A stretch of DNA of 64,000 nt from Muricomes sp. Its GTDB lineage: Bacteria; Bacillota; Clostridia; Lachnospirales; Lachnospiraceae. Made by a program: the position numbers and the translations under genes. The notes under the pieces are model-generated. The model searched no databases, was not told where the DNA came from, and was given only the letters and a program-made list of their open reading frames with translations. The stretch spans positions 49,589 through 113,588 of the forward strand of contig JASGKW010000019.1 in NCBI GenBank assembly GCA_049840515.1, given 5' to 3'. This document shows, in pieces, positions 1,666 through 63,995 of the stretch. The number at the start of each line of letters is the position of its first letter. Within the stretch, counting starts at the first letter, position 1.

Positions 1666-4600
1666 TTATTCTCCTCCTTTCTGACTAAAATTTTGATTGA
1701 ATGCTTCCAACTGTGCCTCTTCAGGGGATAATCCCTGTTCTATCAGCTTCGCTGCAAGTGTGGTCATCTTTTTATAGTCATCTGGAATAATCTTTTTAAA
1801 TTTCGGTAAATACTCCTGGTAATCTGCAAGTATTTTGTGGCCTTTCTCAGACCCTGTAGCTGCCGTATGAGCCTCAATCATATCGTGAAGTTCCTGGATA
1901 TCGGCTTCTGATTCCACTTTTTCAACAGAAATCATATCTTTATTGAGATTCTTATACAAATCATTTTTCTCGTCCAGCACATAGGCAACGCCTCCGCTCA
2001 TTCCAGCCGCAAAGTTCTTGCCTGTCTGGCCCAGGATTGCCACACGTCCTCCAGTCATATACTCACAGCCATGCTCTCCCACACCTTCTACTACCGCATA
2101 GCCGCCGGAATTACGAACTGCAAAACGTTCACCTGCCACACCATTGATGTATGCACTTCCGCTGGTTGCACCATAGAGGGCAACATTTCCTATAATGATA
2201 TTTTCATCCGCTTTATAATTTCTTTCTTTTGGAGGATATACTACAAGCTTTCCTCCTGAAAGTCCTTTGCCAATATAATCATTACAGTCCCCGCATAAAG
2301 TCAGTGTCAGTCCTTTTGGTATAAATGCGCCAAAGCTCTGTCCGCCTGCCCCAGCGCAGGAAATAGTAAATGTGTCATCTGGAAGTCCGTCTTTGTGCTG
2401 CCTTGTAAGCTCTGCCCCAAAAATAGTTCCAAATGCTCTGTCTGTGTTCCTGACTTCTACTTCCAGTTCAGCTCGCTCACCTGTTTCCAGAGCTTTGCCC
2501 AGCTTTTTGAGCAAAATCTGTTCATCTTTTGTATCCTCCAGCTTAAAATCATAAATCTGTGTCGGATCATAGGTAACTTTTTCATTTTCTGCCGCAAACG
2601 GATTGTTTAAAACAGCACCCATATTAATCTGTAAAGCCAAAGGATTCTTTGCATCCTCTTTTACTTTCAGCATATCTGTACGGCCCACCATCTCATCCAG
2701 TGTGCGGATACCCAGTTCTGCCATATATTCACGGAGTTCTTCCGCTATAAAGCGCATAAAGTTTACAACATATTCTGCTTTTCCTTTAAATCTTTTCCGA
2801 AGCTCAGCATTCTGTGTCGCCACACCTACCGGGCAGGTATCCAAGTTGCAGACTCTCATCATAACACAGCCCATAGTTACCAGAGGAGCTGTCGCAAAAC
2901 CGAATTCTTCTGCTCCCAGAAGTGCAGCCATAGCTACATCCCGTCCGCTCATCAGCTTTCCGTCTGTCTCAATCATAACCCGGTTGCGGAGTCCGTTTTT
3001 CAAAAGTGTCTGATGTGTCTCTGCCAGCCCCAGCTCCCACGGAAGTCCTGCATTGTGGATAGAGCTTCTGAGGAGCCGCACCAGTACCGCCGTCATAGCC
3101 TGAAATCAGGATAACCTGTGCCCCTGCTTTTGCAACACCTGACGCGATTGTTCCGACTCCTGCCTCAGAAACCAGTTTTACAGAAATTCTTGCGTATTTA
3201 TTCGCATTTTTCAAATCATAAATCAACTCTGCCAAATCCTCAATAGAATAAATATCGTGATGAGGCGGCGGTGAAATCAGGCTCACTCCCGGTGTAGAAT
3301 GTCTTGTCTTAGCAATCCACGGATATACCTTCTTGCCAGGAAGATGACCGCCCTCCCCAGGTTTTGCTCCCTGAGCCATCTTAATCTGAATTTCACTTGC
3401 GCTGACCAGGTAACGGCTTGTGACACCAAAACGCCCTGAAGCTACCTGCTTGATTGCGGAGCATTTATCTACAGTATTTCCTGCGCTGTCCAGGCGCTCC
3501 TCATCCTCACCGCCTTCACCGGTGTTGGATTTTCCATGCAGCATATTCATGGCAATCGCAAGCGTCTCATGTGCCTCCTCGGAAATAGAGCCGTAGGACA
3601 TGGCACCTGTTTTAAAGCGTTTTACAATCTCATCGACACTTTCCACTTCCTCAATCGGGATTCCCTTTTCCGGGTACTTAAAGTCCATCAGACTGCGCAG
3701 ATATCCGCTCTGCTCCATATCCACCATCTCTGTATATTCCTTGAACATTTTATAATTTCCATGTTTTGTGGACTCCTGAAGAAGATGAATGGTCTGTGGA
3801 TTATAGCGGTGATTCTCGCCTTCTCTTCTCAGCTTGTGAATTCCCATACTCTCCAGCTCCAGAGTCGTGGGCTGGTCCAGAGGATCAAATGCTTTCTTGT
3901 GGCGTGCCTCCACATCATTTTCTATTTCTTTCAGAGTGATACCGCCGACACGGCTTACTGTTCCTGTAAAATATTTTTCTATCACTTCCTCAGAAATACC
4001 GATGGCTTCAAATATTTTAGCGCCAAGGTATGACTGAATCGTTGAGATTCCCATTTTGGACGCAATCTTTACAATTCCATGCATAACCGCGTGGGTATAG
4101 TCATTGACTGCTGCATAATAATCTTTATCCAGAAGATTATTATCAATCAAATCTTTGATTGAATCCAGTGCCAGATATGGATTTACCGCACATGCGCCAT
4201 AGCCGAGAAGTGTTGCAAAATGATGTACTTCTCTTGGTTCTCCTGACTCCAGAATGATGGAGAGAGACGTTCTCTTTTTGTTCTTTACAAGATGCTGCTG
4301 CACCGCTGACACTGCGAGAAGTGATGGAATCGGCATATGGCTCTCGTCAACACCTCTGTCTGAAAGAACAAGAACGCTTACCTCTTCTTTACAGGCTTTA
4401 TCCACCTCCGCAAATACCTTGTCGATGGCACTGTCAAGTGATACATTCTTTTCATAGACAGTAGATATCACAGCAACCTTAAATCCATTTCTGCTCATAT
4501 TTTTGATTTTGAGCATATCAGTGTTGGTGAGTATAGGATTATTTACTTTTAGCATCTGACAGTTTTCCGGCTGTTCTTCCAGGAGATTTCCGGCACGCCC

Positions 4601-22873: not shown

Positions 22874-24568
22874 CTACGTTAGAAATTTCATATTTGTGAC
22901 ATCAAAAATTCCTGATTCTGTCAGCCTGATTTCCGGGATTACAGTGAGTGCCATGAAAGACAAAGTGATAAATGGGTCTATCCCCTCTTTCACTCCCATG
23001 TTTCTGGCTATCTGTACCATCTTACTTGTTTTCTCCTGCACGTGGGCTGCCTCATCCACGCTCATAAGTCCTCCTATCGCAAGAGGCAGCTCATCTACAA
23101 CATGATTCCCGGAAGCAATCACGTACCCACCCTGAATTTTCTTCAATTCATTGATTGCGCACAATATGTCTTCATCATTGTCACCCACCGCAATAATATT
23201 ATGAGAGTCATGAGAAACTGTTGTCGCTACCGCCCCATTTTTTATTCCATATCCTTTTATAGGACAGACACCAACTTTTCCACTCTTTCCATGCCTCTCA
23301 GCCACCACCAATTTTGCATATTCCGAATCGGGTATGAATCTTCCGCCATCTCCCGGTATTCTTTCTTCCTTATGCAAAGTCAACAATTGATTCGGTATCA
23401 GTTCCATCACATGATCGATTTCTTTCCGGACAAATTCCAGGTCTTTCAGATTCAGATTTCCTACTTTAACTGTCTGTAAAAGTGATTCATCCTTCACTTC
23501 ACAGTGAAACGCCGCAAGCCATTCTTTATCAACAATTGTCCCGCTCTTAATCACAAGACAAGGCTCAGCCCTGTTCAAATCATCTACTATAACAATATCC
23601 GCCAGATGTCCCGGAGCTATAGCCCCTGTATTATCTATGTGATAGGCTTTTGCTGTATTAAAGGATGCCATTTTGTATGCCTTTACAGCGGGAACACCTA
23701 TTGCTATCGCTTTACGGATACATGTATTGATATGCCCTTCTTTTTCAATGTCTTCCAAATGTTTGTCATCTGTACAGAACATACATTGATCCAGTGATAC
23801 TCCCGCCTCCAAAAATCCTTTCAACAGGCTCTCCAGGTTTTTTGCACCGCTCCCCTCCCGCACTAAAATCCTAAAACCGGCGCGCAGCTTTTCCAGCCCT
23901 TCCTCGGCTGTTGCACATTCATGGTCATCTACAACTCCCGCAGCACGGTACGCCTGTACATCCTTCCCCGTTATACCAGGCGCATGCCCGTCTATAATCA
24001 TATCTGAGAACAGCTCCAGTTTATCCATCGTTTCCTTCTGTTCATTCAGAACATCAATGAAACGCATCATTTCTCCCAGACCAAGAACTCTGGGATTTGA
24101 TTTATAGGACAGCATATCCTCTGCCAAAAATTTTCCTGCGCCATTTATATCAATGTCTGTTGCCGGAACGGAGGAAGGTATCATAACATACGTGTTGACA
24201 GGTATATTTTCTGATGCATCTAAAATAAAGTCCAGCCCTTTCTTCCCGCTTACATTCACAATCTCATGAGGGTCAGCAATAATACCTGTAGTGCCGGCAC
24301 ATATGATATGTTTTGCAAATTCCACCGGCGTTACCATTGATGATTCAATATGGACATGTGCATCAATAAACCCTGGGACTATATACTTTCCTGTACAGTC
24401 AATCTCTTTATCACCTTTATATTCTCCTACACCCACAATAACGTTTCCTGCAATAGCTACATCCGCGGGATATATTTCTTCCGTAAATACATTTAATACA
24501 TTACCATTTTTTAACACCAAGTCCGCAGGTATCGCCCCCCTGGCCGTTTGAATTATGCTTTTACCCAT
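22874..24568 (-). CDS. ade: Adenine deaminase
   Basis: 564-aa ORF with the amidohydrolase metal motif GFIDAHVHIESSM. Length and layout are typical of Ade. Confidence 0.88.
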   Translation of the reverse strand: MGKSIIQTARGAIPADLVLKNGNVLNVFTEEIYPADVAIAGNVIVGVGEYKGDKEIDCTGKYIVPGFIDAHVHIESSMVTPVEFAKHIICAGTTGIIADPHEIVNVSGKKGLDFILDASENIPVNTYVMIPSSVPATDIDINGAGKFLAEDMLSYKSNPRVLGLGEMMRFIDVLNEQKETMDKLELFSDMIIDGHAPGITGKDVQAYRAAGVVDDHECATAEEGLEKLRAGFRILVREGSGAKNLESLLKGFLEAGVSLDQCMFCTDDKHLEDIEKEGHINTCIRKAIAIGVPAVKAYKMASFNTAKAYHIDNTGAIAPGHLADIVIVDDLNRAEPCLVIKSGTIVDKEWLAAFHCEVKDESLLQTVKVGNLNLKDLEFVRKEIDHVMELIPNQLLTLHKEERIPGDGGRFIPDSEYAKLVVAERHGKSGKVGVCPIKGYGIKNGAVATTVSHDSHNIIAVGDNDEDILCAINELKKIQGGYVIASGNHVVDELPLAIGGLMSVDEAAHVQEKTSKMVQIARNMGVKEGIDPFITLSFMALTVIPEIRLTESGIFDVTNMKFLT

Positions 24569-24654
24569 ATACCAAACACCTCTTTCTTTTTCATTTTTTA
24601 AGTCATATGGCTTATAGTCTATAAAACACGTCCATACTCATTACAATCTGTGTG

Positions 24655-24680
24655 CAAAAAGCCCCGCCATAAAGACGGGG
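24655..24680 (-). terminator. Intrinsic terminator downstream of the serine recombinase gene
   Basis: On the minus strand: CCCCGTC-tttat-GGCGGGG followed by CUUUUU. Confidence 0.65.
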
Positions 24681-24697
24681 CCAAATGTTTAAATTAT
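24661..24697. repeat. Copy C of the 37-nt terminator-containing repeat, at the chromosome/element junction
   Basis: ccccgccataaagacggggccaaatgtttaaattata matches 21436-21472 at 35 of 37 positions. Confidence 0.8.
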
Positions 24698-24705
24698 AGA
24701 TAACT

Positions 24706-26592
24706 TCAAGAATAATATGATTCCTGCCTATTTTGCTTTGATAGCTGCCTGTGCTGCATTGCTACTGGGGAGTATTTTTCTCCTTTTATAGCATTCGCAA
24801 TATCTGCAATAAAAAGTATATTGCTATGTACCGAGGGCTTATCGCCCTCGTCAGTATTAGCTTGTTTTTGAATATATATAGTTGGATTATTCTTTCTGCC
24901 TTCCACTACCATATCAATTTCTTCAGTTTCCAAAGCACTTAGATTTACAAACCAAGCAAAATGATTATTCTCCTTTGGAACAACTCTTGCTATAAATTTA
25001 TCTATAAGGTCATTATATATTTGGGGAGCAGAAATATCAATAACTTCTTTCAATGTTGTATTAATTTTGTCCCAAGCTAATCCTTTCTCCTGCCTTGTAT
25101 TATTGGCAGTGCTCTGTTTTAGCAACTCTTCTTCATACTTACACATTTCTTCATCAAGATGCTTTCGTAGATTACGATATTCTTCGGTGGTGATATCTCC
25201 TTCTGTTCGCAAATCAATCAAATTACTGATTTTCATTTTTATTTTAGAGATTTTTCTTTGAATAAGTTCTGACTCTGCCTTTTTATCCCTACTCTCCTGA
25301 TAACATTCTTTCAGAATTGCACAAGCTTTCTGTATTGCCTCATTTTTGTTTAACCAAATCTGTTCCATCAGTTTTTTACACATAACCTCTAGTTTCCAGT
25401 CTGCCACCATCCGTACATCACAATAACCAGTATCATCTAACCCCTGTTCTCTTCTTTTTTTTGCAGAACCATTATTCAATTGATTATAACATTGATACCC
25501 ATATGACCAGTCCTTATTTTTGTTTTTATGCCAGCGGTTTTTCCTAAACGATGCCCCACAAGAACAATGGAGCTTTTTATTCCATTTATCTTTGGTTTCT
25601 TTTCTTGGTGACGTAATGCTTTCTTCTCCAAAAGGTGTTTTCTTCTTCATAGGAAGACTCAATTCTCTTCTTCGCCTTTTTCTGATTTTTTCGCACTTAT
25701 ACCAATCTTCTTCCGAAACAAGTGGTTCAAAACCAGCTTTTACATACATATAAGTATCTCTATTATGGTTATTTATTCTTTTTTGCTCAAGATAATTATT
25801 ACTAAATGACTTTCCATAAACCGCATATCCCATATAAGTTGGATTACCTAGCACTCTGCTAACATTAGAAGATGTCCATTTTACCTGACCTGATGCAGCT
25901 ACTCTTCTTCTATTACAAAGTTCATTTGCTATTTTAATTGTTCCAATTCCTTCATTTAGATACATGTCAAATATCATTCGAACTGTCTCTGCCTGTTCTT
26001 CATTTACTATATATTTTCCATCTACCCGATTATAGCCTAAAATATTACCATTTCCATAAACAACACCTTTAGTACGGCTAATGTGCTGGCCTGCCTTCAC
26101 TCGTTCTGATACTTTTCGACTCTCCTCCTGTGCTAGTGTTGCCATGATTGTCAGACGAAGCTCTCCATCATTATCCATTGTCCAAATGTTATCTTCAACA
26201 AAATACACTTCGATGCCAATACTTTTCAATTTTCTGGTTGTAACAAGTGTATCTACCGTATTTCTGGCAAATCTGCATACTTCACGAGTGACAATCAAGT
26301 CAAATTTTCCTGCTCCGGCATCTTCTAGCATCTTCAAAAATGCCGGACGTTTCTCCGCCTGTGTTCCAGTAATGCCCTCATCAATATACTTATTACACAC
26401 AACCCAGTTTGGATGGAATCTTGCCTGATCATCATACCATTGTATCTGATTCTCCAATGCTGATAATTGCGCCTCATGTTCAGTTGACACTCTACCATAA
26501 AACACAATATTTCTCTCTCTGTTTTTATCTTTAAATGTGTCAAATGGTAACTGAATATTCTTGCTAAAATCCACACTATTTTTATTCATCAC
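24706..26592 (-). CDS. Large serine recombinase (TnpX/TndX-like integrase)
   Basis: 628-aa ORF with the N-terminal resolvase catalytic domain (VFYGRVSTEHEAQ..., TREVCRFARN), a recombinase domain, a Cys-rich zinc-ribbon region (CSCG...CYNQ) and a C-terminal coiled coil. Confidence 0.9.
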   Translation of the reverse strand: MMNKNSVDFSKNIQLPFDTFKDKNRERNIVFYGRVSTEHEAQLSALENQIQWYDDQARFHPNWVVCNKYIDEGITGTQAEKRPAFLKMLEDAGAGKFDLIVTREVCRFARNTVDTLVTTRKLKSIGIEVYFVEDNIWTMDNDGELRLTIMATLAQEESRKVSERVKAGQHISRTKGVVYGNGNILGYNRVDGKYIVNEEQAETVRMIFDMYLNEGIGTIKIANELCNRRRVAASGQVKWTSSNVSRVLGNPTYMGYAVYGKSFSNNYLEQKRINNHNRDTYMYVKAGFEPLVSEEDWYKCEKIRKRRRRELSLPMKKKTPFGEESITSPRKETKDKWNKKLHCSCGASFRKNRWHKNKNKDWSYGYQCYNQLNNGSAKKRREQGLDDTGYCDVRMVADWKLEVMCKKLMEQIWLNKNEAIQKACAILKECYQESRDKKAESELIQRKISKIKMKISNLIDLRTEGDITTEEYRNLRKHLDEEMCKYEEELLKQSTANNTRQEKGLAWDKINTTLKEVIDISAPQIYNDLIDKFIARVVPKENNHFAWFVNLSALETEEIDMVVEGRKNNPTIYIQKQANTDEGDKPSVHSNILFIADIANAIKGEKYSPVAMQHRQLSKQNRQESYYS

Positions 26593-26821: not shown

Positions 26822-27337
26822 TTAGTCATCTATTCTTCCAATATAATAATCATACCCTTTTCGCACATTACAAAACATACAGGTATCTTTATATTGCTGT
26901 TCTGAATCTACCCTCTTAATATAGTTATTAGGTATCTCATAAAAATGTCTTGCACACACCGGACATAAGCATAATAATAAAGACGGTTCTTTAACTATTC
27001 CTGTGCTTGTACGCAATGCTACATTTATTTTTTTCATATGCACACTATCCAGCGTTCCAACATATTTTTTTAATCTCTTTTTATCAATTGTTCTTAATTG
27101 CTCAAGCAATACAACAGAGTTTTTTTCTAACCCCACAATGTCTCCTAACTTAACATGAGTAGGAAGTTTAGTCTTGGTCTTGCTTGTAATTGCTGCAACA
27201 ATAACCGTGGGACTGTACTGATTTCCCCTATTGTTTTGAATTATTAACACAGGACGATATCCCCCCTGTTCGCTCCCATAAACGGGACTTAAATCGGCAT
27301 GATAAATATCCCCTCGCCAAATTCTTTTATCTTGCAC
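26822..27337 (-). CDS. mazF: MazF/PemK (EndoA-like) endoribonuclease toxin fused to a C-terminal 4-Cys zinc-ribbon-like extension
   Basis: Residues 1 to about 115 are close to Bacillus EndoA ([63 protein letters not shown]). An extra tail of about 55 aa carries CPVC...CMFC. The start is GTG with the SD GGAGG 9 nt upstream. Confidence 0.8.
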
Positions 27338-27867
27338 TTTTATTAACCTCCAATTTCATTGTGAAACCTTATGCTATCCATTAAATCAACAACTAAATTA
27401 AAACTTTACTCACATATACAACATCTCAAATGTAATACCTATTTGTCCTCGACACCCCGGCTTTCATACCTGCCAATTGACAGGTAAAAGGAAGTCACCA
27501 GACGGCTGACAGCGAATCAGCTCCACGGGAATCACACCCTTCCGAGGATCTCCCGGAACTGCCCTCACTTGTTGCGACGCTTTTAACGCTCGACCTTATG
27601 ACCGGACAGGAGTATCATTATTTCTGTTGCCTGTTATCGCCTTATCGGAAGCCATCCGATATTTATGGCCAAATATATTCCGCTCCTTGAATGAACTACA
27701 TCAGCCGCAAATCTCTCTCTTTTCTCTGTGGGATTTCGCTGCTTGTGTTCCATCCAAATCATAGCGTATCTGCTAATGTGGCTTACGCTCATCACGATAA
27801 CAACAGGAATGTGCCTGGTGAATGGGTATGAAATTTTCAAGGTGCATCCCATTCTCCGTACAACAGA

Positions 27868-47571: not shown

Positions 47572-49391
47572 TTATTCTGTTTGCTCTAAGAGAGAATTTT
47601 TTCCCTCAGAAAAAATAGTTTCCAGTTCTTCATCTGACAGAAGTTCATAGTTCTTTCCGTCTTCTAGTTCCTGTGTGATTTCTCCATCCAAACTGTCAGC
47701 AAGAGAAATGTTGGCCACCGCCTGTGTTACTTCACCATGACGGTATGGCTCTCCTTTTCCATCTGTGGTCAGTACCACGTTTGGATGTTTTAGGATGTCA
47801 AATTTTTCATCCATGACAGGGCGTTCTCCCCGAATAAAAAGAAGTGCGTACCGATTATCCAGCATACGCACCTCATCCGGCGTTAAAAGTTCCCGCCCCG
47901 ATATTTGATAATTTGTAGAATAGTTCCCAGAATGTCCCGTGGACTTTCCATAAGTGTTCATGTCAATGGTAGATTTCCCAAGCAACTCACTCACATATTT
48001 ATGTGTTCCCTGCTCATTTCCACCAAGATACAAAAATTCATCACAATTGCCCACAATGCTCTCCCATTGTTTTTCAAATAATGCCTTTAACTGTGCCAGA
48101 TTTTGCAGAATGATGGATACGCTGACCTCCCTCGACCTCATAACAGAAAGGATTTTATCAAAATCATCCGGCAGTGAAACATTCGCAAATTCATCCATCA
48201 GAAAGTGTACATGAACAGGCAGCCTCCCCCCATATTTATGGTCAGCAAGATAAAATAGCTGTTGGAACAACTGTGTATATAAAATAGATACCAAGAAGTT
48301 GTAGCTGGTATCGTTGTCCGGTATCAGTGCAAACAATGCCACTTTTTCCTCACCCAAAGAGGGCACTCCAAATCATCTGTAGCAGTCAGTGCTGCAAGAC
48401 TTGATAAGTTAAATTTCTCCAGCCTCGCCGCCAGTGTAATCTGAATGGATTTCAGCGTTTTAGCACTGCCGGAATGGTAATCCTTATAATACTTTACTGC
48501 AATATGCTCCGGTTCCCGCATTTCCAGACGCTCAAACAGCTCATCAAGAGGTGACTGGTATTCATCACTGTCCTCCCGGACTTCACCTGCCCTTAGAAGT
48601 TCCATGACCATTGGGAAATTCTGTTCCTCTTTTGGTGCCTCATATTTTAGATAGAAAATCAATGCCAGCAATAACATGGAGGCTGCAGTATCCCAAAATG
48701 GATCGTTGCTCTGACTTCCCTTTGGTGTGGTTGCTTTAAACAGGTTCGTCACAAGCCTCTGAACATCGTTATCATCTTTCAGATAAACAAAGGGATTATA
48801 GCAATGGCTCTTTTCCATGTTGATTAAATCAAGCACTCGCACCTTGTACCCCTTTGATTCCAGCAGGTGCCCTGTGTCCCTCAGATTCTCTCCTTTTGGG
48901 TCAAGGACCACAAAGGAAGTATTTGCCTGGATTAAATTTACTTTTCCATAAAAACGTGTTTTTCCAGAGCCTGCCCCTCCAATCACTAAGGTAAGGACAT
49001 TCCTGCGGTGTTTCCGCATATCGTAACTAATCCGTACATTTTGGGTCATAATCTTATTATCTTCAAATTTCTTTGCACTGTACTTTTTATTGACTGCCTT
49101 TGCATCTCCCCATTTGGCAGACCCGTGTTCCTCACCTTTACGGTAATTCCTTTTAGTAGACACATAAATACCAATCCCCATACCATAGGCAAGCAGAAAA
49201 ATAAGGACAGTTTTTACGCTGTCCTTACAGAACTCCATAGAAAAAGGGTGGTTCATTTCCTCTGAAAGTCCATTTATGATAGAGAACAGACCCCCCGATA
49301 AATAGGGAGCAGTCAGCAGGGCAAACCAGATAACTGGAAGAATGCCACAAGCAGTAAATGCCCATGTTGTCTTCCTGTCATCGTTCTTCAT
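47572..49391 (-). pseudogene. traG: Type IV coupling protein (VirD4/TraG-like), split by a 1-nt frameshift
   Basis: ORFs 48324-49442 (two TM helices, Walker A GGAGSGKT) and 47572-48366 (HFLMDEFAN Walker B region) join at ...LTATDDLE / PSLGEEKVALFALIPD, near 48361-48368. Confidence 0.85.
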
Positions 49392-49581
49392 GATATTTAT
49401 GCCCCCTTTTCCCTTTCTCTGCTGGAACCTCCATCCGGGCAATCACCTTTAACAGTACATCATCCACTGCATCCGTGGCTTTACCTTCCTGAATCATCTG
49501 ATTGCGTTTATCATTTAAAGAATGAAAAATCACGCCGCTCTCATATTGGTCCAGTTCCAGAGTAATTTTTGTATCGCCCAA
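49378..49581 (-). CDS. Small hypothetical protein upstream of the coupling protein
   Basis: 67-aa ORF with a TTG start preceded by the SD AGGAGGTG at 6 nt. Confidence 0.45.
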   Translation of the reverse strand: MGDTKITLELDQYESGVIFHSLNDKRNQMIQEGKATDAVDDVLLKVIARMEVPAEKGKRGHKYHEER

Positions 49582-56359: not shown

Positions 56360-59300
56360 TTATCGTTCCGGTTCTCTCACAGGTTTCTCAGATATCACCT
56401 CCTCCGGTTCTTCATCCAATATCACCTTGTCCTTTTTATCCATATCCAACAGGGCATTTAATTCTCCAAGCCTTGCCGTCTTCCCCAATAATTCCTGTTC
56501 TTTTGAAAAGGGTTTCTGTGCCTCTGCCTTTGCTGTTTCAAGCTGTGCTTTGGTATTCTCCAGCTTTTCCCTGCACCGTTCCAGATTATCTCCAAACTTT
56601 GCAATTTCGTTATCCAGTCGCGTAATATTTCCATAAATATCGATGCCAAGCGATACATGATAGGTCAATTTCCCTTTTAATGCAATGACAAATTCTTTGG
56701 AAAATGTACTATAAGACAGTTCCATCTTCATTCCCCGGTAAGCTCCAAGTTCCACTCCATCAGGAGATTTCATGGCTTTACAAGCCTCCACAATGGTTTT
56801 TCCAGCCTCCTGCTTTTCTGTATAAGTGATACTGTTTATCTGCATGGGGGAGAATACTTCCCTGTCTGAAGGTGTAAATTCCTTAACCCGTGCAATATCC
56901 ACCTCATAAGCAGCGATGCGTTCCTCCAAACGCTTTATCTCTGCCGGATACTGTTTGGTTGCCTTATCTTCCAACTCATACCGCTGGCTTAAAAAGCCCT
57001 GTTTTAATAACTGCAGTTTGGACACCTGAATATCCAAGTCCATCTTTTCCTTAATATAGGGGTTTCCAGTCGCAAGTGCTTTGATTTCCGCATAAGATAA
57101 TGCTACCTCATCAATATCCTCAACCGTACGTGCCGGACTTTTGGACGTCATGATCTGACTAATAAACTTCTGCTTGTTCTCAATAATCTGATACAAATAA
57201 GCATCAAAAGTTCCTTCCGTTACATAACGAATAATACTGACTTTCTTATTTTCATTACCACGGCGTATACTTCTTCCTGCTCTCTGTTCTAAGTCACGGG
57301 GACGCCAGGGGCAATCTAAATCATGACTGGCAACAATCAAATTCTGGACATTTGTCCAGCTTCCCATCTTAGATGTGCTACCCATAAGAACTCGGACAAC
57401 ACCATGACGCACTTTAGAAAACAACTCCTTTTTCTGTATTTCTGTGTTAGCATGATGGATAAATGCAATCTCCTCCGGTGGTATCCCACGGGCAATCAAC
57501 TTCCGGCATACATCCTCATAAACATTCTCAAATTGGTCCGCATCTATAACAAAATGATTCTCGCTGATTTCTTTTGTCTCAAGGACACGCTTTGACTGTG
57601 GAGTGGACAAATCACAAAATACCAGTTGTGTTGCTTTTGTATCAGAATGTTCCTCCCAAATACGATAAACTTCCTCCACACAGGCATTGACCTTGCTGTT
57701 CTCCTCATCAGGCAACATAGGATTAATCAGCCTTTGGTCCAGTGCCAGTTTTCTTCCATCATTAGTGATTAACAGCATATTGTCCTCTGTTGGATTGACC
57801 AGACCATTCCTCACACGTTCTGCCCTGACTCCCAACTCTGCCACCATCTCCTGCTGCATTTCACTGGGTTTTGTGGTTATGACTCGATATTCCGCTTCCG
57901 GAACAGGCAGTTTCAGCATATCCGCAGTCTGAATATCCATAAACTCACGGACCATCATCATAAGTTCCGGCAGATTATAAAATTTTGCAAACCTTGTTTT
58001 CAGGCGATATCCTGTCCCCTCCGGCGCAAGTTCAATGGCTGTCACCGTTTCTCCAAAAGTAGAGGCCCATGCATCAAAATGCTGTAAACCATGTTCCACC
58101 AGCGTATCATACTGCAAGTATCTCTGCATGGTATAGAGTTCCACCATGCTATTGGAAATGGGGGTCCCCGTGGCAAATATGATGCCCCGCCCACCTGTGA
58201 CTTCATCTAAATAGCGGCATTTCATAAACATATCCGAAGATTTTTGTGCCTCTGTCTGTGAAATTCCACCCACATTCCTCATTTTTGTGTAGAGATACAG
58301 ATTCTTATATAAATCTGCCTCATCCACAAAAAGGCGGTCAATTCCCAATTCTTCAAAACATACCACATCATCCTTCCTGCTCTGGTCATTTAATTTTGCC
58401 AGTTTTCCCTGTAATGTTTTTTTCGTTTTTTCCATCTGCTTGATGGTGAATCTACTGCCTTGATTACTCTTTTCTTCTGCAATGCCCTCCACAATTTCTG
58501 CAATTTCCATCTCCAGCATCCTGCACTGACGTTCTGCACTCAGCGGAATTTTTTCAAACTGTGAATGCCCAATAATTACTGCATCAATATCGCTGGTCGC
58601 AATCCTTGCACAAAATTTCTTCCGATTCTTCTTTTCAAAATCCTTTTTGGTGGCAACCAAAATATTTGCGGCAGGATATAGCTCCATCCAGTCCGCCCCA
58701 AACTGCTCAATGATATGATTTGGTACGACAATCATAGATTTACTGCAAAGTCCAAGCCGCTTCAACTCCATTGCCGCTGCCACCATCGTATAGGTCTTGC
58801 CTGCTCCCACCACATAAGCAAGCAGTGTGTTTCCTCCGTAAATAGTGCGGGCAACCCCGTTTAACTGATGCTGGTCCAGACACTTTTCCGGGTTCATTCC
58901 ATAAAAATGGAGATGACTTCCATCATACTCCCTCGGACGGACTGCATTAAAATGTTCGTTATAAAATGCCGTCAGCCTTTGCCTTCTCTCTGGCTCCTGC
59001 CAAATCCAATCCTGAAATGCCTGCTTGATCAGGTCCTGTTTTCCCTGTGCAATGGCAGTTTCTTTTCTGTTTAGGACTGCTTTTTTCTTACCCTCATCGT
59101 CAATCTCATAATCATACACCCGTGTATCTCGCAGGTTCAGTGTATCTTCCACAATCTTATAGGCATTTACCCTGTGTGTCCCATAAGTGTTGTTTGCCTT
59201 TACATTCCCCTTGTCATTGCTTTTCCCTTCAATGCTCCACTCTCCACTGAATTTAGAAAAATGAACTTTTATCTTCCATCTTGTATAATTTGGAGTATCC

Positions 59301-62300
59301 AAAAGGAAAAAAAGAAACTCTGCAATGTCCTCCGGCGGTATCCATGTGGAACCAAGCCTCACACTGATTTCTGAGGCGGACAATTCTTTTGGCTGTACTT
59401 TTTCTAAAGCGTCCACATTGGTCTGATAGACAGCAGACTTCTTTGCTGCTAGCCTTGCCTGCTCCAGCTTTTTCCGGACATTTCCCGACAAGTATTCATC
59501 TTCTGATACAAACTGTGGCTCCGCTCCCTCGTTTCCCGGTGTACGGAAAATCACACCCGTTAAATCCTGTTCAATTTCTTCCTCACTTTTCCCTGTTAAA
59601 AGACACATATATTCCATATCCACACAGGCTTTTTCTGCCAATGACAAAGACAATGCTTCGCTAGACGTATCCACTTTTGTTACAGCAGCATGGGATTTGA
59701 TGGTCCGTTTGGTAAACATATCTGCTTTACGTTCCAAAGTTCCATCCGCTGCCAGCACCTCTAAGGAGCACAGCAAAGGATAACTATTATCATCAGAAAA
59801 AGCCAGAGCATTTGCCCTGGCATTCAAGAGTCCATATTTTTTCTGGAAAGTATCATACAGAGTATTTAGTTTCTTTTGCTGGTCCCCAATCACGGATTCT
59901 GAATACTCATCGGTCTGATATCGGATCAGCTCTCTTGTGCAATCCCTGATGGCAATCATACCTTTCACACGGTTTGCGGCTGTTATGGAAAGGTCGACTG
60001 GTTTCATTCGGCTGTTTTCCCGGTAATATATCTTTCCCTCAAAAACAGCATAGGAAAAGTTTGCAACGGAGGGGTCTGCAGGAATAGATTTGTCTTCCTC
60101 CTCTACCAGTTCTTCTACTTCATATTCTGTAAACTCTGCCTGTATCTTTTTAACTGCCTCTTCCAAAAGGCTGCCAAGTTCTCTGTCCTTATAGGGACGG
60201 CAGGTACTATCCATGCCATACTGGGTAGACTCCATCACCATTTCTCCCAACACCATCTCCGGGTGCTGCACAAAATAGCTGTTCTGCAAAATACCATTTT
60301 GATCCGTATTCAAATATATCCAGTCTGGCTCCACTTCCACCATACGGTCACGCTTTTGAAAAAACAGAATATCTGCCGTAACCTCTGTACCTGCATTTTG
60401 TTTAAACGTATCATTAGGCAGGCGGATGGCTCCCAAAAGTTCCGCCCTCTGCGCAATATATTTTCGGACAGAAGGATTTTTCTTATCCATTGTTCCTGAT
60501 GATGTGATAAATGCCATCACACCTCCCGGTCTGATTTTGTCTAAGGTCTTTCCAAAGAAATAATCATGGATCAGGAAATTCTGCCTGTCATACCGCTTAT
60601 CTGACACTTTAAACTGTCCAAATGGAACATTGCCCACTGCCACATCAAAAAAGCTATCCGGCAGGTCCACTTCTTCATACCCCTGCACTGCAACAGTAGA
60701 TTGCTGATACAGCTGTCCCGCTATTTTCCCTGAAATGGTGTCCAGTTCCACACCATAAATTTTACAATCCGAAAGGCTATCCGGCTTCATTCCAATAAAA
60801 TTGCCAATGCCACAGGAGGGCTCCAGTATATTACCTTCCTTTAATCCCATGTTCTCCAATGCCTGGTACATTGAACGGATGACAGCAGGGGGTGTATAAA
60901 ATGCAGTCAGCGTGGATTGCCTTGCAGCCGCATACTCTTCTTCTGTCAGTATATTTTTCAGTTCCAGATACTCACTGCTCCATGTGGATTTGGTTTCATC
61001 AAATACATCCGGCAAACCTCCCCATCCCACATAACCGGATAAGATTTCCTGCTCCTTTGGTGATGCATACCTGTCTTCTGTCTCACATTGTTTCAGTATG
61101 CGGATTGCTGCCATATTTGCCTGAAATTTTTCCTTCGCAGTTCCCCTGCCAAGTGCATCATCATAAATTTTATATTGACTCCTTTGGGATTGGGGTATTT
61201 CCGGGTGCAAATCAAAAGATTGTATTTTCCCTGCGAGATTCCCTTTCTCCCATGCAGGAGATAAGCTCTTCTCTTCTTGCCCATACTGATTCTCTCCAAC
61301 AGACTGCTCTGTCTTTTCTGACAAAGGCACTTTTGTCTCTGGTATTCTTGTTTCTGGTAACTCTGATTCTGATGAATGGTCTGTATCTTCTGGATTGTTG
61401 TTTTCGGCTGGTAATTCAGAAACTGGCTGGTTAAGTTTCAGGGAATCGTTGGCAGGATTTTCTCTTAGCTTACGGTCAAATTCTTCATGGGGCATTTCTC
61501 TTGTAAACAGTGGATAGGCCAGATCGTGTAATATAACACTATCCTCCAAAATAGACTGGATTTCATATTCCTCTGCACCAATATACACCACAGTTCCAAT
61601 CTGTATATCATAAGGCAGATTCATGGAGGGAAGATCGTTTACTGCTGTAACCAGTGTTTGAAGTTCCGTGTATAGGTCATCTTCAGGCTCCATTTCTTCT
61701 GCAATTTCAGTTAAAGATAACAGGATTTGTTTGACGCTCTCCGGCTGTTGTAATTGTTCCGCCAATTGCGAAATTACTTCTTCCTGGGTCTGGTCAACTT
61801 CCATGTTATCCTGATAACCAGACAGGTCATATTCCCGGTAAAAGTCATTGAGCCTTACTGCAAGGCTGTCCTCCCTGCTCACTTCTTGCTGCGGCTCTGT
61901 CAAGGTGGAAACTTCCTTTTCACCAGATATGAGGGTGAACAGACTATAGACACCATCCCGATAATCCATAAGGTCTTTGTATGCCTTCTGCATGGACACA
62001 TAATTCCGGTCAAAGTCTGCTGTATGATTCAGCACTTCTTCCATAGACTGAATGTTTTCAGCTATCCGCACCGAATCATCAAGCTGAGAACGTATGGCAT
62101 CCACACCTGAATGATAATCAGTTCCCAGTTCATAAGGACGTAAGACTTCTCCTGGCTGATTATAATAAAAATGATAAATTTCTGCCGCCAGCTCTCTCCT
62201 TTTCATATTCCGGCAGATACTCCATTTCTCTCTTTGAAAGATAACGATTTGCAGCAATGAGTTCATCAATCCGCTTTACTACCTGATTCCACCTCAATAA

Positions 62301-63995
62301 AACAAAGGGTGCATTTTCTTTGTATCCTCTGTGCAGTTTTAATCCTTTGCCATCATGCATCTCTCCAATCCCTGAACCACTTAGAATAGAGGAACACCCA
62401 CCGATACCATACTCCTTCTTTAAAAACCGCTCCTTTTCCTTCTGACTATGCCCCTGCATAAAATAGGAATAGATGCGGAGTTTTCCCTGACTTACACCGC
62501 TCCCCCTTGTCAGCGCATAGTCCACCACCTCCTGCGAAAAAGAAAAAGCAGAGGGTTTCTCCTCTGCTAACTCTTCCAGAAAGGCCATCTGTCCTCCTAC
62601 TGTGGGAAGTGGTTTCCTTTTCTCTTGTAATTCTCCTAAAAGACGCATTGCCTCAAAATAATTTGCAATGACACCCCAATCATAATAGGACTGCGATATA
62701 CGGGATATATAACTTCCCTCCCACATATGAAGTACATTCTGAAATGTTTTATATCCTACTTGCTTACCATCCTCCAGCGTGAGTTCTGTATATTCCGGAT
62801 TAAAAATACTTTTGATATATTCTGTCCGCTCTCCCTCATCCTCATGGCTTTCATAAAATACCCGAATTTCCTCTTTTGTGGCTTTTAAATGTGGGGTAGA
62901 CAAAAGCAGTGATTTAATATCTTCTTCTCTTCCAAAAAATGGGAGGCTGTGGTCTTCATTGCCCCTGTCATACCATGCCAGCGGCTCAGTATGGACTTCT
63001 TCCATAGTTTCCTCACTCTCTTCATTGGGTTCGGATTCTTGGGATATTAGCTGTAAATCAGTTCCCTCATCACTGTTTCCTCCGCTGAACTCCGGATATT
63101 GTTCATGATTCCCACCCACAACATCTGATTTTCTGCTTTCAACTGCTCCGTTACTTTCTGTTCTTCCATCATTTGTATTGTGAGCTGTTCCATCAGGTTC
63201 ACTGCCTCTGTCTGCATTTCTATCAAATGCTGGTTCAGCCTGCCTTGTGTCAACAGATTGAGGAACATTCCGTACCGATGCTCCTTCAGATAATTTCGGC
63301 GTAATGAGGCGTACTTCCCAAGATGTACTTCCGGTTCTTTTGGAACGGTTACGTCCGGTAACTGATAATCCCCCTGCCTGCTGTATGTGATGTTCTTCAT
63401 CTTCCAGTCTCCTTTCCCTGTCCTGTTCTGTTTTTTTAATTTGATTATAGCCTTGTATATCCTCCTGCTCAAATGTGCGTTTTTTACTTTTTTCTCCCGA
63501 CCTTAGCTGCCTGATTGTATCCGCAATTTCGGATAGTGCCATTTCTGACACCTCACTGGTCATGGTTCCAAACAGGTTCACAAGCTCTGTAGTGTTCAAA
63601 TCCATGATTCCTTTGAAATCATCTGCCTCAAGACATTGCTCTGGCGGTATGCCACATCGTATCAGCATCATATAGGCAATGCTGTTGGCAAGCAGGCTCT
63701 TTATTTCCACTTGCACACTGTATTCATCCAAGCCCACTAAAAAGCTGTTCTCTCTGCTTGATAACAGGTCTCCCATATAATCTGAAATATTATCCTCAGC
63801 GGCATTTTTTGCTGCCTCCAATATGGTCTGTACAAAATTTGTGGTTTTCTCTCCCACACCAAATGCATTGTGGACCGTCTCCTGTACTGCCTGTCTGTCT
63901 TTCTCCCTGACTTCCCACAACGGCACAGGGCGTACCAGACGGTGATAACGTCCTTCTTTTATATCTGAAATATCAAAGTAGTATTTCAAACGCAT
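56360..63995 (-). pseudogene. Giant polyvalent protein: N-terminal domains + N6-adenine DNA methyltransferase + SNF2/DEAD-like helicase; 1-nt frameshift near 62200
   Basis: ORFs 62160-63995 and 56360-62269 join at ...EMEYLPEYE / RRELAAEIYHFYYNQPGE, in a T4/A4 run. Methylase motifs are ILEPSCGIGNFIG and GNVPFG. Helicase motifs are VGAGKTYTM, LFVDEADLYKN and QRAGRSIRRGN. The start may lie beyond the window. Confidence 0.8.
63047..63400 (-). CDS. tnpV: TnpV-like protein, nested out of frame inside the giant gene
   Basis: The sequence is MKNITYSRQGDYQLPDVTVPKEPEVHLGKYASLRRNYLKEHRYGMFLNLLTQGRLNQHLIEMQ...LKAENQMLWVGIMNNIRSSAEETVMRELIYS*. The SD AAGGAGA lies 7 nt before the ATG at 63400. The sequence resembles TnpV-family proteins as I recall them. 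Confidence 0.55.
   Translation of the reverse strand: MKNITYSRQGDYQLPDVTVPKEPEVHLGKYASLRRNYLKEHRYGMFLNLLTQGRLNQHLIEMQTEAVNLMEQLTIQMMEEQKVTEQLKAENQMLWVGIMNNIRSSAEETVMRELIYS

Follow-up and report, generated by a model that had tools for sequence, protein, structure and literature searches.

A tnpV gene nested out of frame in the linker of a polyvalent-protein gene: a very likely dual-coding pair on an ICE

Can one stretch of bacterial DNA encode a folded protein in one frame and part of a giant multidomain protein in another, or is the second frame open merely by chance or through an assembly error? The question is raised by a locus in the window, namely the whole stretch of 64,000 nucleotides analyzed here, in which a tnpV gene lies wholly inside the open reading frame (ORF) 62160-63995, on the same strand and with a frame offset of +1, so that outer codon position 2 is TnpV codon position 1. 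Long, fully nested out-of-frame genes are textbook cases in small phages and are very rare in bacterial DNA elsewhere. The data gathered below make a genuine nested pair, with both frames coding, the very likely answer, and the pair is apparently undescribed. That both products are made is an inference, as no proteomics, Ribo-seq or transcription start-site data stand behind the dual-coding claim.

The nested gene, its host gene and the element

The features of the nested pair, all on the minus strand, are collected in Table 1 with those of their surroundings. The nested ORF matches the Pfam family PF14198 (TnpV) over the entire profile (136.1 bits, E=6.3e-40, profile positions 1-111/111, for a gathering cut-off of 27 bits), and its NCBI homologs bear the name 'TnpV protein'. 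It is thus a true member of the TnpV family, which comprises more than 11,000 clusters at 50% identity in a library of 1.84 billion proteins, most members being 115-130 aa long. The protein translated from the ATG begins MKNITYSRQGDY and ends LIYS. It is modeled by AF2 with a confident fold (pLDDT 86.5), predicted to be a small beta-hairpin plus helical protein, and a Foldseek search of this model against the PDB returned no match at E<5. An Xis-like role in excision has been postulated for TnpV (PMC3158075); the label 'lambda Xis-like' was not retained, being without structural support in the Foldseek search. The two frames overlap over 351 nt, and Rfam gave no match in or near this overlap.

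Table 1. Coordinates of the nested pair and associated features in the window
Feature	Position	Strand	Remarks
Large serine recombinase	24706-26592		Resolvase and Recombinase domains; terminal in ICE
Polyvalent gene continuation	56360..62198	minus	Pfam PF02384, PF00176, PF04851, PF00271
Outer ORF seen in window	62160..63995	minus	611 aa; N-terminal part of giant polyvalent gene
Frameshift site	62191..62199	minus	One extra nucleotide in GAGAGAG
Linker-coding segment of outer gene	62949..63428	minus	Outer residues 190-349; AF2 pLDDT <50 (about 25)
tnpV CDS	63047..63400	minus	117 codons + TAA stop (63049-63047); ATG = 63400-63398
Nested ORF	63047..63472	minus	141 aa if counted from TTG
Shine-Dalgarno sequence GAAAGGAG	63409..63416	minus	8 nt upstream of tnpV ATG; outer frame reads Glu-Arg(-Arg/Ser)
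-10-like hexamer TATAAT	63444..63449	minus	Consensus scan; encodes invariant outer Tyr183 and next Asn
-35-like hexamer TTGAGC	63467..63472	minus	17 nt upstream of -10; contains the TTG opening the 142-codon frame
Conserved nucleotide block	63473..63487	minus	Just upstream of -35; consensus AAAATCGCA(C/T)A(T/A); window GTAAAAAACGCACAT

Several points of the original prediction, made from sequence alone, can be judged here. A TnpV-like ORF at 63047-63472 nested out of frame, a non-repetitive product of about 117 aa (exactly 117 aa from the ATG at 63400) and a Shine-Dalgarno sequence AAGGAGA located 7 nt from this ATG had been claimed, and all three held. The proposed extent of 142 codons is corrected, since its first 24 codons precede the ATG and do not belong to tnpV; the longer frame opens with a TTG (63472) that coincides with the -35-like hexamer. 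Also corrected is the view of ORF 62160-63995 as the giant ORF, of which it is only a part that runs off the window and is cut downstream by a 1-nt frameshift.

The outer ORF leaves the window at its end (64000), and homologs have about 88 further N-terminal residues. At its other end, the frameshift splits the 611-aa ORF from the remainder of the giant gene in the window copy only. The tblastn matches of two homologs (P0001 and P0005) change frame, from -3 to -1, between 62199 and 62191, and homologs are unbroken at this site, where they read EYEKxxLAAEIYHFY. The domains found in ORF 56360-62269 are N6_Mtase, Eco57I-type methylase, SNF2-related, ResIII and Helicase_C. The giant gene therefore meets the criterion for polyvalent proteins, i.e. 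the combination of several conflict-related domains such as a DNA methylase and an SNF2 helicase. Polyvalent proteins of conjugative elements were the subject of Iyer et al. 2017 (PMC5512222), and in one relative an LPD28 gene is located just upstream of the polyvalent gene. The criterion of an uninterrupted ORF is failed by the window copy through its +1 insertion, most related loci being continuous over 1000-1900 codons. A frameshift is also present in the VirD4 gene of the window, at about 48324-48366. The two breaks could reflect decay of this particular element or indel errors of the assembly.

The outer ORF encodes a folded helical domain followed by a linker and a folded alpha/beta domain, and the outer protein has 409 homologs, most of which cover 98% of the query. 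Its domains could not be assigned: Pfam and NCBIfam matched neither the 611-aa ORF nor two full-length homologs (P0001 and P0072), a PDB profile search found nothing, and Foldseek of the AF2 model of the outer protein gave no match below E=0.39. The N-terminus has a look reminiscent of ArdC-N, an identity that was not adopted for lack of any profile or structure match. The linker consists of ~160 residues predicted to be disordered and without secondary structure in the AF2 model, and tnpV overlaps outer residues about 199-317. It is rich in G/E/D/S/R/T in the window, and its composition pooled over 35 loci is 13.8% G, 11.0% E, 10.3% D, 10.3% S and 9.6% R.

The locus sits on an ICE, as indicated by the presence in the same window of a relaxase, a VirD4-type coupling protein, a VirB4-like ATPase, a lysozyme/CHAP cell-wall hydrolase, a Toprim primase and a terminal large serine recombinase; a sortase is also found. 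This element exceeds 40 kb and is under no obvious size pressure. The recombinase gene lies ~37 kb from the nested tnpV. At several free-standing tnpV loci a recombinase gene is found directly upstream, which is an association and not a strict definition.

Conservation of both frames and selection within the overlap

The nested arrangement is not peculiar to the window. In 80/80 related genome loci neither the position nor the frame of tnpV changes, and the identity of their outer proteins to that of the window is only 32-56%. Both isolates and MAGs are represented, from Lachnospiraceae, Oscillospiraceae, Dehalobacter, Desulfotomaculum, Holdemania and others; isolates with an intact element include Acetatifactor muris DSM 23669, Dorea amylophila H5_25 (L008), Faecalicatena contorta and Lachnospira intestinalis. 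The same +1 nesting occurs in 13 further loci. Of the 80 loci, 79 have an intact tnpV frame, and in 78 it starts with ATG and is traversed by an outer ORF mostly longer than 1000 codons. A single tblastn match of the outer protein covers the region in nearly all loci. Nested copies were also found in Monoglobus, Cohnella and Streptococcus suis plasmid records, the S. suis copy being a divergent TnpV-like one, and in about 11 IMG/VR contigs; in some of them the neighboring domains differ. Nesting thus spans Clostridia, Erysipelotrichia (Holdemania) and Bacilli (Cohnella and the divergent S. suis copy).

Across tnpV, the outer frame contains no stop in 81/81 loci and the third frame 7-22, while the frame of free-standing tnpV genes equivalent to the outer one contains 1-14. 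Given the TnpV protein and the local codon usage, an open outer frame is expected with a probability whose median over 35 non-redundant lineages (less than 80% identity to one another) is 7e-5 and whose range is from 4e-2 to 5e-10. For the window copy alone it is 3.4e-4. Some caution is required, because the loci are linked by descent and horizontal transfer, so that the 35 lineages are not fully independent, and because the outer protein served as the query for the locus set, which biases it toward nested cases; the unbiased sample based on TnpV is small (38 loci). It is nevertheless shown that both frames are kept open in divergent homologs, beyond what chance would give.

The selection patterns, which are also shown, differ sharply between the frames. 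In the overlap, the TnpV frame has dNN/dSN of 0.15-0.22 and NG86 dN/dS of 0.17-0.20, and purifying selection acts on tnpV. The outer frame of the same segment has dNN/dNS of 0.9-1.3 and an apparent dN/dS of 1.5-1.6, as against 0.09-0.14 in the outer domains flanking the overlap; no residue-level constraint on the outer frame was found there by these dN/dS-type tests. The most variable codon position is outer position 3 in the flanks and becomes TnpV position 3 in the overlap, where synonymous divergence of tnpV is about half that of the flanks (a roughly two-fold suppression). Codon usage was set aside as a test of the ancestral frame because it is confounded: outer synonymous sites are TnpV second positions, and outer codon usage in the overlap would be poor whatever the history.

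The constraint on the outer side takes another form. Hydrophobic residues make up 12.9% of the outer-frame translation, compared with 21.1% in stop-free synonymous shuffles, and are fewer in 35/35 loci; the equivalent frame of free-standing tnpV genes has 23%. Selection therefore acts on both frames in the overlap, its outer side being seen as stop avoidance, depletion of hydrophobic residues and suppressed synonymous change in tnpV. From these patterns it is inferred that only openness and hydrophilicity matter for the linker. As stops and hydrophobic residues are selected against, the outer frame across tnpV is probably translated, an inference that rests solely on stop avoidance, composition and in-frame continuity, its expression being untested.

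Two further claims of the original prediction are borne out by these results: that the outer frame stays open over the nested frame and that this is unlikely by chance (P=3.4e-4); and that the low-complexity R/S/G/D/E/T linker is shaped by the overlapping gene (composition, disorder, codon periodicity and dN/dS). The check that it proposed, of codon-position conservation and synonymous rates, shows the TnpV frame to be constrained. The 'possible overprinting' is not settled if the term is taken strictly, for a de novo origin of one of the frames, the only tree available being an unrooted NJ tree.

Embedded expression signals and a proposed mechanism

The conservation of signals for tnpV inside the outer ORF is shown; their activity is inferred. 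Among 75 distinct nested loci, GGAG is present in 67, in 60 of them at the 8-nt spacing, and the full GAAAGGAG in 58; this sequence encodes the invariant outer residues E194 and R195. Further upstream, 31/35 non-redundant loci have the arrangement TTGNNN-17-TANNNT at the corresponding site, compared with 0.007 expected per window. The TTG of the -35-like hexamer is invariant in the aligned block of non-redundant loci, and the final T of the -10 is kept though the residue it helps to encode varies (N, P, S, A, T, I or D). In a promoter scan of the window alone, matches were not above chance, and the embedded promoter is credible only because it is conserved across loci. The element is likely to be a promoter, with the reservation that this is a consensus-type inference and that conservation could partly reflect protein-level constraint on the outer helix.

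The block adjoining the -35 (63473..63487) encodes Asn-Arg-Thr/Ile in the outer frame and is conserved even where a change would be synonymous in that frame. Most of its positions show 87-100% nucleotide identity among loci with the divergent outer proteins described above, Arg being almost always CGC and Thr/Ile being ACA/ATA. It could be an extension of the promoter or an operator. The few invariant outer residues nearby, R173, Y183, E194 and R195, would be dictated by the signals and codons of tnpV.

The proposed mechanism is as follows. Ribosomes translating the giant gene would pass straight through the overlap in frame 0 and produce a hydrophilic spacer, while a separate TnpV of 117 aa would arise by internal initiation at the conserved GAAAGGAG-8 nt-ATG. 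The mRNA for TnpV would be the polyvalent transcript or, probably, a shorter transcript from the embedded promoter, a putative sigma-A-type element (TTGNNN-17-TAYNNT) located 31-46 nt upstream of the ATG. In this scheme tnpV would be the informational gene of the overlap, setting the outer sequence by its signals and codons. As for function, TnpV might be an accessory in excision, integration or establishment of the element; this low-confidence guess is based on the fact that TnpV elsewhere adjoins large serine recombinases of the TnpX type and that the ICE uses a large serine recombinase too.

Rival readings, known parallels and origin

The rival that survives best, although unlikely, is that the outer frame is kept open for translation itself, for example to avoid polarity or Rho termination and thereby allow expression of the downstream methylase/helicase part, the tether being irrelevant. 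It is supported by the lack of residue-level constraint on the outer frame in the overlap and by the variation between lineages of the domains beside tnpV. Selection against hydrophobic outer residues implies, on the contrary, that properties of the polypeptide matter, and the frame is everywhere continuous with flanking domains that are strongly constrained. This reading would still be dual coding and differs only in why the frame is open.

Much less likely is that the polyvalent gene engulfed an old tnpV whose frame survives only as a fossil, as linker DNA from which no TnpV is made. Some annotation records do call the outer gene only, and no function has been demonstrated for TnpV. Against a fossil stand the low dN/dS of the TnpV frame with no residue-level counterpart in the outer frame, codon periodicity that tracks TnpV, the near-universal integrity of the frame with 78 loci starting at the conserved ATG after the Shine-Dalgarno sequence, and the conserved promoter-like signals.

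It is also very unlikely that TnpV is made only in fused form, joined to the N-terminal polyvalent domain by programmed +1 frameshifting with the internal Shine-Dalgarno sequence as stimulator. The tnpV frame is +1, as such a fusion needs, and in many loci it has no stop over some codons ahead of the ATG; internal Shine-Dalgarno sequences stimulate frameshifting in prfB and dnaX. However, loci L013, L064, L073 and L061 have a TnpV-frame stop at the ATG or within one codon of it, the ATG is at the same position in 78/80 loci with a spacing optimal for initiation, the nested loci show no conserved slippery or hungry codon, and free-standing TnpV proteins of the same length exist. The criteria for a programmed +1 frameshift cassette are not met.

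The weakest rival, two genes flanking a free-standing tnpV with an outer frame open by chance or through an assembly indel, could appeal to coincidence for a single sequence and to the indel-like frameshifts elsewhere in the window, but is all but ruled out by an outer frame open in 81/81 loci and 13 more from independent assemblies, by its very low chance per lineage, by the unbroken tblastn matches, by the stops of free-standing tnpV genes and by the implausibility of an assembly error shared by isolates and MAGs of different studies. The original prediction had left both possibilities standing; now that its homolog check has been run and both frames have proved open and conserved, genuine dual coding is favored, and both the two-gene alternative and an indel artefact are excluded by the recurrence of the arrangement in independent assemblies of many taxa.

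With dual coding as the preferred reading, the pair can be compared with known systems. The lambda Rz1 gene has its own ribosome-binding site and lies in the +1 frame wholly inside Rz, on the same strand, and is conserved in relatives. The tnpV pair shares these features and likewise belongs to a mobile element. The lambda spanins, however, act as a complex, whereas TnpV and the polyvalent protein are not known to be functionally linked; Rz1 has about 60 codons against 117 for tnpV, and, unlike Rz, the host frame of tnpV is an unconstrained disordered linker and the inner gene is also widely free-standing. In Bacillus subtilis, the small regulatory gene comS lies out of frame in the giant multidomain gene srfAB and has an internal start on the same mRNA. 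The tnpV pair has a similar layout, likewise in Firmicutes, but comS has 46 codons, is placed in a region encoding an enzymatic domain and is restricted to a narrow clade, whereas the 117-codon tnpV lies in a linker, is broadly distributed and appears to have its own promoter.

Overprinted genes of the phiX174 type (B in A, E in D), reviewed for viruses (PMC8227390), are likewise same-strand and out of frame, one of the two frames being under strong constraint and the other compositionally biased or disordered, and suppression of synonymous rates and a shift of codon phase are common to them and to the tnpV pair. They belong to tiny viral genomes under size constraint, unlike the tnpV pair. 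Escherichia coli GndA, a small ORF nested on the same strand inside gnd (PMC11230408), is similar as an alternative-frame product of an annotated bacterial gene missed by annotation; products of this type have fewer than 50 residues and narrow conservation, whereas TnpV is a folded protein of a large family. The free-standing tnpV genes of Tn4451/Tn4453-type mobilizable transposons belong to the same PF14198 family and, like the nested gene, to mobile elements using large serine recombinases. There, tnpV is an ordinary gene directly downstream of tnpX, with an alternative frame full of stops, in contrast to the nested tnpV, which is inside another gene and distant from the recombinase.

Several consequences follow for annotation. 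None of the five annotated or gene-called records inspected calls both genes; each has only tnpV or only the giant gene, and gene catalogues, pangenomes and domain censuses of such ICEs may lack one of the two. The host element class is very common in the gut microbiome and spreads resistance genes. 'Conserved residues' in the linker of the polyvalent protein would in fact be DNA/RNA signals, the promoter-like and Shine-Dalgarno sequences leaving a visible imprint on the host protein. An overlap of this length, conserved in Clostridia, Erysipelotrichia and Bacilli, offers a clean natural system for frame sharing between a folded protein and a composition-constrained spacer, in which the question of which frame came first becomes directly testable.

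An NJ tree of 107 TnpV proteins, without outgroup and unrooted, separates one free-standing clade from a large nested clade, within which three free-standing lineages also fall. One possibility is that the TnpV family was born de novo by overprinting in the polyvalent linker and later escaped to a free-standing state. The escapees might then be the free-standing tnpV genes now carried by Tn4451-type transposons and by cassettes linked to tet(O)/tet(W), and some escapes could have occurred through TnpX-type elements inserting at the 5′ end of the nested gene, as one suggestive junction (L051) hints. If true, this would document how a widespread bacterial protein family arose in an alternative frame and became independent of it. 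In S. suis, serine-integrase IMEs are reported to insert in the snf2 gene of ICEs, to carry TnpV and to be flanked by TTTTGCGGACA (PMC9815147). As a possible IME attachment-site motif, this 11-mer was looked for at the retrieved loci and occurs in none of them, and the S. suis nested locus lacks it even when 2 mismatches are allowed; a single locus (L008) has TTGCGGACA, at the -35 site. Truncated plasmid matches to tnpV (H30-H34) were considered as remnants of target sites and rejected, as they are copies truncated by IS1216 upstream of tet(O)-type genes.

Two frames kept open across tnpV

The original prediction placed a TnpV-like gene, with its own well-spaced Shine-Dalgarno sequence (SD), out of frame within the giant ORF. 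Both parts hold: the 117-aa protein matches the whole Pfam TnpV profile (PF14198; 136 bits, cut-off 27, E=6.3e-40), its database relatives bear the name 'TnpV protein', and an SD precedes its ATG. Outer codon position 2 coincides with TnpV codon position 1. The outer ORF has no match in Pfam or NCBIfam and has 409 database homologs, the majority covering 98% of the query; it is only a fraction of a larger gene. Its 5′ part (~88 further N-terminal residues in homologs) is lost off the window end, and between 62199 and 62191 a single extra base makes homolog alignments switch from frame -3 to -1, leaving a 611-aa ORF that stops at 62160 and a 1969-aa ORF overlapping it. Homologs are unbroken at the equivalent place (...EYEKxxLAAEIYHFY...); the frameshift may be either a true pseudogenising mutation or an assembly indel.

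Positions of tnpV, its host gene and other features of the element
Feature	Position	Strand	Remarks
Nested ORF	63047..63472	-	141 aa counted from TTG
tnpV CDS	ATG at 63400, TAA stop 63049-63047	-	117 aa, MKNITYSRQGDY...RELIYS
SD	63416-63409	-	GAAAGGAG, 8 nt 5′ of tnpV ATG
-10-like	63449-63444	-	TATAAT
-35-like	63472-63467	-	TTGAGC
Conserved block AAAATCGCA(C/T)A(T/A)TTG	63473-63487 and into the -35-like hexamer	-	at the homologous place in related genome loci L001-L080
Outer ORF	62160..63995	-	holds tnpV in the +1 frame
Frameshift	62191-62199	-	one extra base in GAGAGAG
Polyvalent gene continuation	56360-62269	-	N6-methylase and SNF2/helicase domains
VirD4-type coupling-protein gene, split	47572-49442	-	two overlapping ORFs
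PemK/MazF-type toxin ORF	26822-27337	-	with pemK RNA motif, near the ICE serine recombinase gene
Large serine recombinase	24706-26592	-	adjoins housekeeping genes

Dual coding beyond chance is established decisively by the comparative test. For the window alone, with the TnpV protein fixed and synonymous codons drawn from local usage, the probability that the outer frame is stop-free across tnpV is 3.4e-4. One genome per GTDB species was scanned with the outer-protein alignment, giving 80 loci (Lachnospiraceae, Oscillospiraceae, Ruminococcaceae, Dehalobacter, Desulfotomaculum, Holdemania, Anaerovoracaceae and others) with outer proteins that share 32-56% identity with that of the window. All 80 carry a TnpV homolog (42-67% identity) at the same position in the +1 frame, and 78 have an ATG at the aligned position and an outer ORF running through tnpV, which in most loci goes on for 1000-1900 codons, usually as far as the fetched DNA reaches. 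The other two are L051, which an insertion has truncated, and L055, whose N-terminus is longer and whose start codon is TTG. Within tnpV no stop interrupts the outer frame in 81/81 loci, while the third frame contains 7-22. An open outer frame has a probability between 4e-2 and 5e-10 (median 7e-5) in 35 lineages that share <80% TnpV identity, and the frame is open in every one. The predicted improbability of an outer frame open by chance thus held, as did the proposed check that both frames remain open in homologs. The loci are not fully independent, and the main set was picked through the outer protein, whose gene has at least 552 species-level matches.

Openness is a property maintained in nested genes and no by-product of the TnpV sequence, since within-gene permutation of synonymous codons predicts a mean of 3.0 stops in nested genes against 0 observed, and 7.5 in free-standing genes against 6.2 observed. 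On plasmids of Campylobacter, Streptococcus gallolyticus, Salmonella, Vescimonas and Pusillibacter, the equivalent frame of free-standing tnpV genes, not nested in another gene, is interrupted by 3-14 stops. A scan of IMG/VR with TnpV itself as query, unbiased towards the outer gene, gave ~11 nested loci with 0 stops (outer ORF of 494-1400 codons) and ~25 free-standing loci with 1-11 stops.

Selection on the two frames

In the folded flanks of the outer gene dN/dS is 0.09-0.14. Within the overlap the TnpV frame shows an NG86 dN/dS of 0.17-0.20 and an OLGenie-style dNN/dSN of 0.15-0.22; for the outer frame the apparent dN/dS of 1.5-1.6 and the dNN/dNS of 0.9-1.3 mean that there is no residue-level constraint. 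Variability by codon position peaks at outer position 3 in the flanks (0.62) and at TnpV position 3, equal to outer position 1, within the overlap (0.505). AlphaFold predicts a confident TnpV fold of a beta-hairpin and helices (pLDDT 86.5) and disorder for outer residues 190-349 (pLDDT ~25), of which tnpV overlaps residues ~199-317; the expected linker character of the outer product thus held, at the level of prediction and composition.

The outer frame is still under selection in the overlap, through stop avoidance, synonymous suppression in tnpV and hydrophobic depletion. In close pairs dS is 0.137 in tnpV versus 0.26-0.29 in the flanks, about half. The hydrophobic share of the outer-frame translation is 12.9% versus 21.1% in stop-free synonymous shuffles (mean z=-3.6; 35/35 loci lie below the shuffles); it reaches 23% in the equivalent frame of free-standing tnpV genes. 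The simplest reading, probably correct, has the linker translated and required to be open and hydrophilic but otherwise unspecific; translation is inferred, without expression data.

Expression signals, mechanism and rival readings

A GGAG lies 5′ of the ATG in 67 of 75 distinct loci, with 8-nt spacing in 60 and the full GAAAGGAG in 58. Further upstream, TTGNNN-17 nt-TANNNT occurs in 31/35 non-redundant loci, against 0.007 expected per window, and ends 31-58 nt (mostly 34 or 43) 5′ of the ATG; 19 of the 31 have TACAAT or TATAAT as the -10, and the other four non-redundant loci have near matches. The final T of the -10 is kept though the outer residue there varies (N, P, S, A, T, I, D). Promoter-like matches in the window alone are not above chance, so that an embedded tnpV promoter is inferred from cross-locus conservation, and its activity likewise. 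The block AAAATCGCA(C/T)A(T/A)TTG is 87-100% conserved although the loci's proteins are only 32-56% identical, and it is under nucleotide-level, not protein-level, constraint, because synonymous positions are conserved too (Arg nearly always CGC; Thr/Ile as ACA/ATA). This exceeds plain -35 needs and might mark an operator or some other site acting at the DNA level. In the poorly structured stretch only R173, Y183, E194 and R195 of the outer protein are invariant, which the tnpV expression signals encoded there explain. In the nested copy of S. suis, GGTATAAT is followed by AGAGGAGG and then by ATG, in identical geometry.

Both frames are conserved and open, TnpV residues and outer openness and composition are selected, and the signals are conserved. 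In the proposed mechanism, the giant gene would be read in frame 0 through the ~160-residue linker, and TnpV would be made separately by internal initiation at its SD and ATG, from the polyvalent transcript and probably also from one started at the embedded promoter. Production of both proteins, activity of the promoter and functional coupling of any kind remain inferred, without expression data.

Among the rivals, an outer frame open solely to sustain translation, with an irrelevant tether, is unlikely but not excluded; hydrophobic depletion suggests that the polypeptide matters. Production of TnpV as a fusion by programmed +1 frameshifting is improbable given the TnpV-frame stops that some loci (L013, L061, L064, L073) have right at the ATG or beside it, the conserved ATG and optimally spaced SD, and the absence of any slippery motif in the loci. 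That tnpV is a fossil without a protein product is very hard to reconcile with purifying selection on its frame and conserved expression signals. The alternative raised in the original prediction, two genes flanking tnpV with a frame open by chance or indel, failed and is all but excluded by cross-locus openness, controls and selection patterns.

Origin, annotation and setting

An excision role of TnpV has only been postulated, from weak resemblance to Xis (PMC3158075), and a PDB structure search with the TnpV model found no relative. Free-standing tnpV often lies directly 3′ of a TnpX-type large serine recombinase; this adjacency and the ICE's own large serine recombinase are the grounds for a low-confidence guess at an accessory role in element recombination or establishment.

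A neighbour-joining tree of 107 TnpV sequences, built without outgroup and hence unrooted, separates a large clade of nested copies from one of free-standing genes; three free-standing lineages are placed inside the nested clade (4 Fitch changes), and the free-standing recombinase-tnpV pairs L082 and L084 also fall within it. A growing polyvalent gene may have engulfed tnpV a single time or, less probably, tnpV was born in the linker and repeatedly escaped. Domains flanking nested tnpV vary by lineage (IMG/VR contigs L092, L093, L097, L099, L102, L109, L110, L114), so the tnpV-in-linker module persists amid domain shuffling; some of these contigs lack outer residues 349-459 of the window's protein, and in L099 the outer ORF begins only ~63 codons 5′ of tnpV.

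In L051 (Extibacter muris NZ_SMMX01000031.1), 2127-3292 encodes the C-terminal portion of a large serine recombinase resembling TnpX (Zn_ribbon_recom, DUF4368) and ends 74 nt 5′ of a nested tnpV. The first 10-12 codons of this tnpV are missing, and its homology to intact relatives starts at codon 11; the end of a serine-recombinase element may have inserted in its 5′ end. IMEs of S. suis reportedly use the ICE snf2 gene as an insertion site and 'carry TnpV' (PMC9815147). The loci studied lack the 11-bp repeat TTTTGCGGACA of these IMEs; only TTGCGGACA is present, at the -35 site of L008. A Streptococcus suis plasmid (L083, NZ_CP135064.1) has an unannotated, divergent nested TnpV-like ORF of 144 aa at 3854-4288, which keeps the C-terminal motif LKxxDMLSWxxQMNNLR...LIY; the host gene is annotated 'DEAD/DEAH box helicase family protein', and its N-terminal part is unrelated to the window's outer protein.

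The tnpV pair meets the in silico-testable defining features of same-strand nested out-of-frame genes, like lambda Rz/Rz1, phiX174 B/A and E/D, and B. subtilis comS in srfAB. It stands out by its 351-nt length, phylogenetic depth, embedded promoter-like signals and abundance (TnpV: 11,563 representative clusters at E<=1e-3). No description of the nesting was found in the searched literature mentioning 'TnpV', the polyvalent-protein paper does not contain TnpV, and a literature search for nested or overlapping genes in conjugative elements gave no relevant result. The five annotated or gene-called records inspected (L081, L129/L130, L131, L083) each show a single one of the two genes: TnpV alone in Monoglobus (L081, NZ_OY725736.1) and two further records, the giant gene alone in S. 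suis (L083) and a MAG. PGAP-type records list the TnpV protein and leave unannotated gaps in the giant gene's place.

The surroundings of tnpV are a conjugative element, with genes for a Toprim primase, MobA/VirD2 relaxase, VirD4 coupling protein, VirB4-like ATPase, lysozyme/CHAP hydrolase and sortase. After the serine recombinase come genes for adenine deaminase and alcohol dehydrogenase, and this region (22874-26592, -) is likely one ICE end and the start of host DNA, the element reaching from at least 24.7 kb to beyond the 64 kb of the window. The VirD4 ORFs 48324-49442 and 47572-48366 match profile positions 17-251 and 256-442 plus TraG-D_C, respectively. Occurring in a gene essential for conjugation, this second frameshift might point to a decaying ICE or to indel-prone sequencing; neither it nor that of the polyvalent gene touches the overlap. 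An Rfam pemK RNA motif (27523-27621, -; 59.7 bits, E=3e-8) lies 5′ of the PemK/MazF-type toxin ORF.
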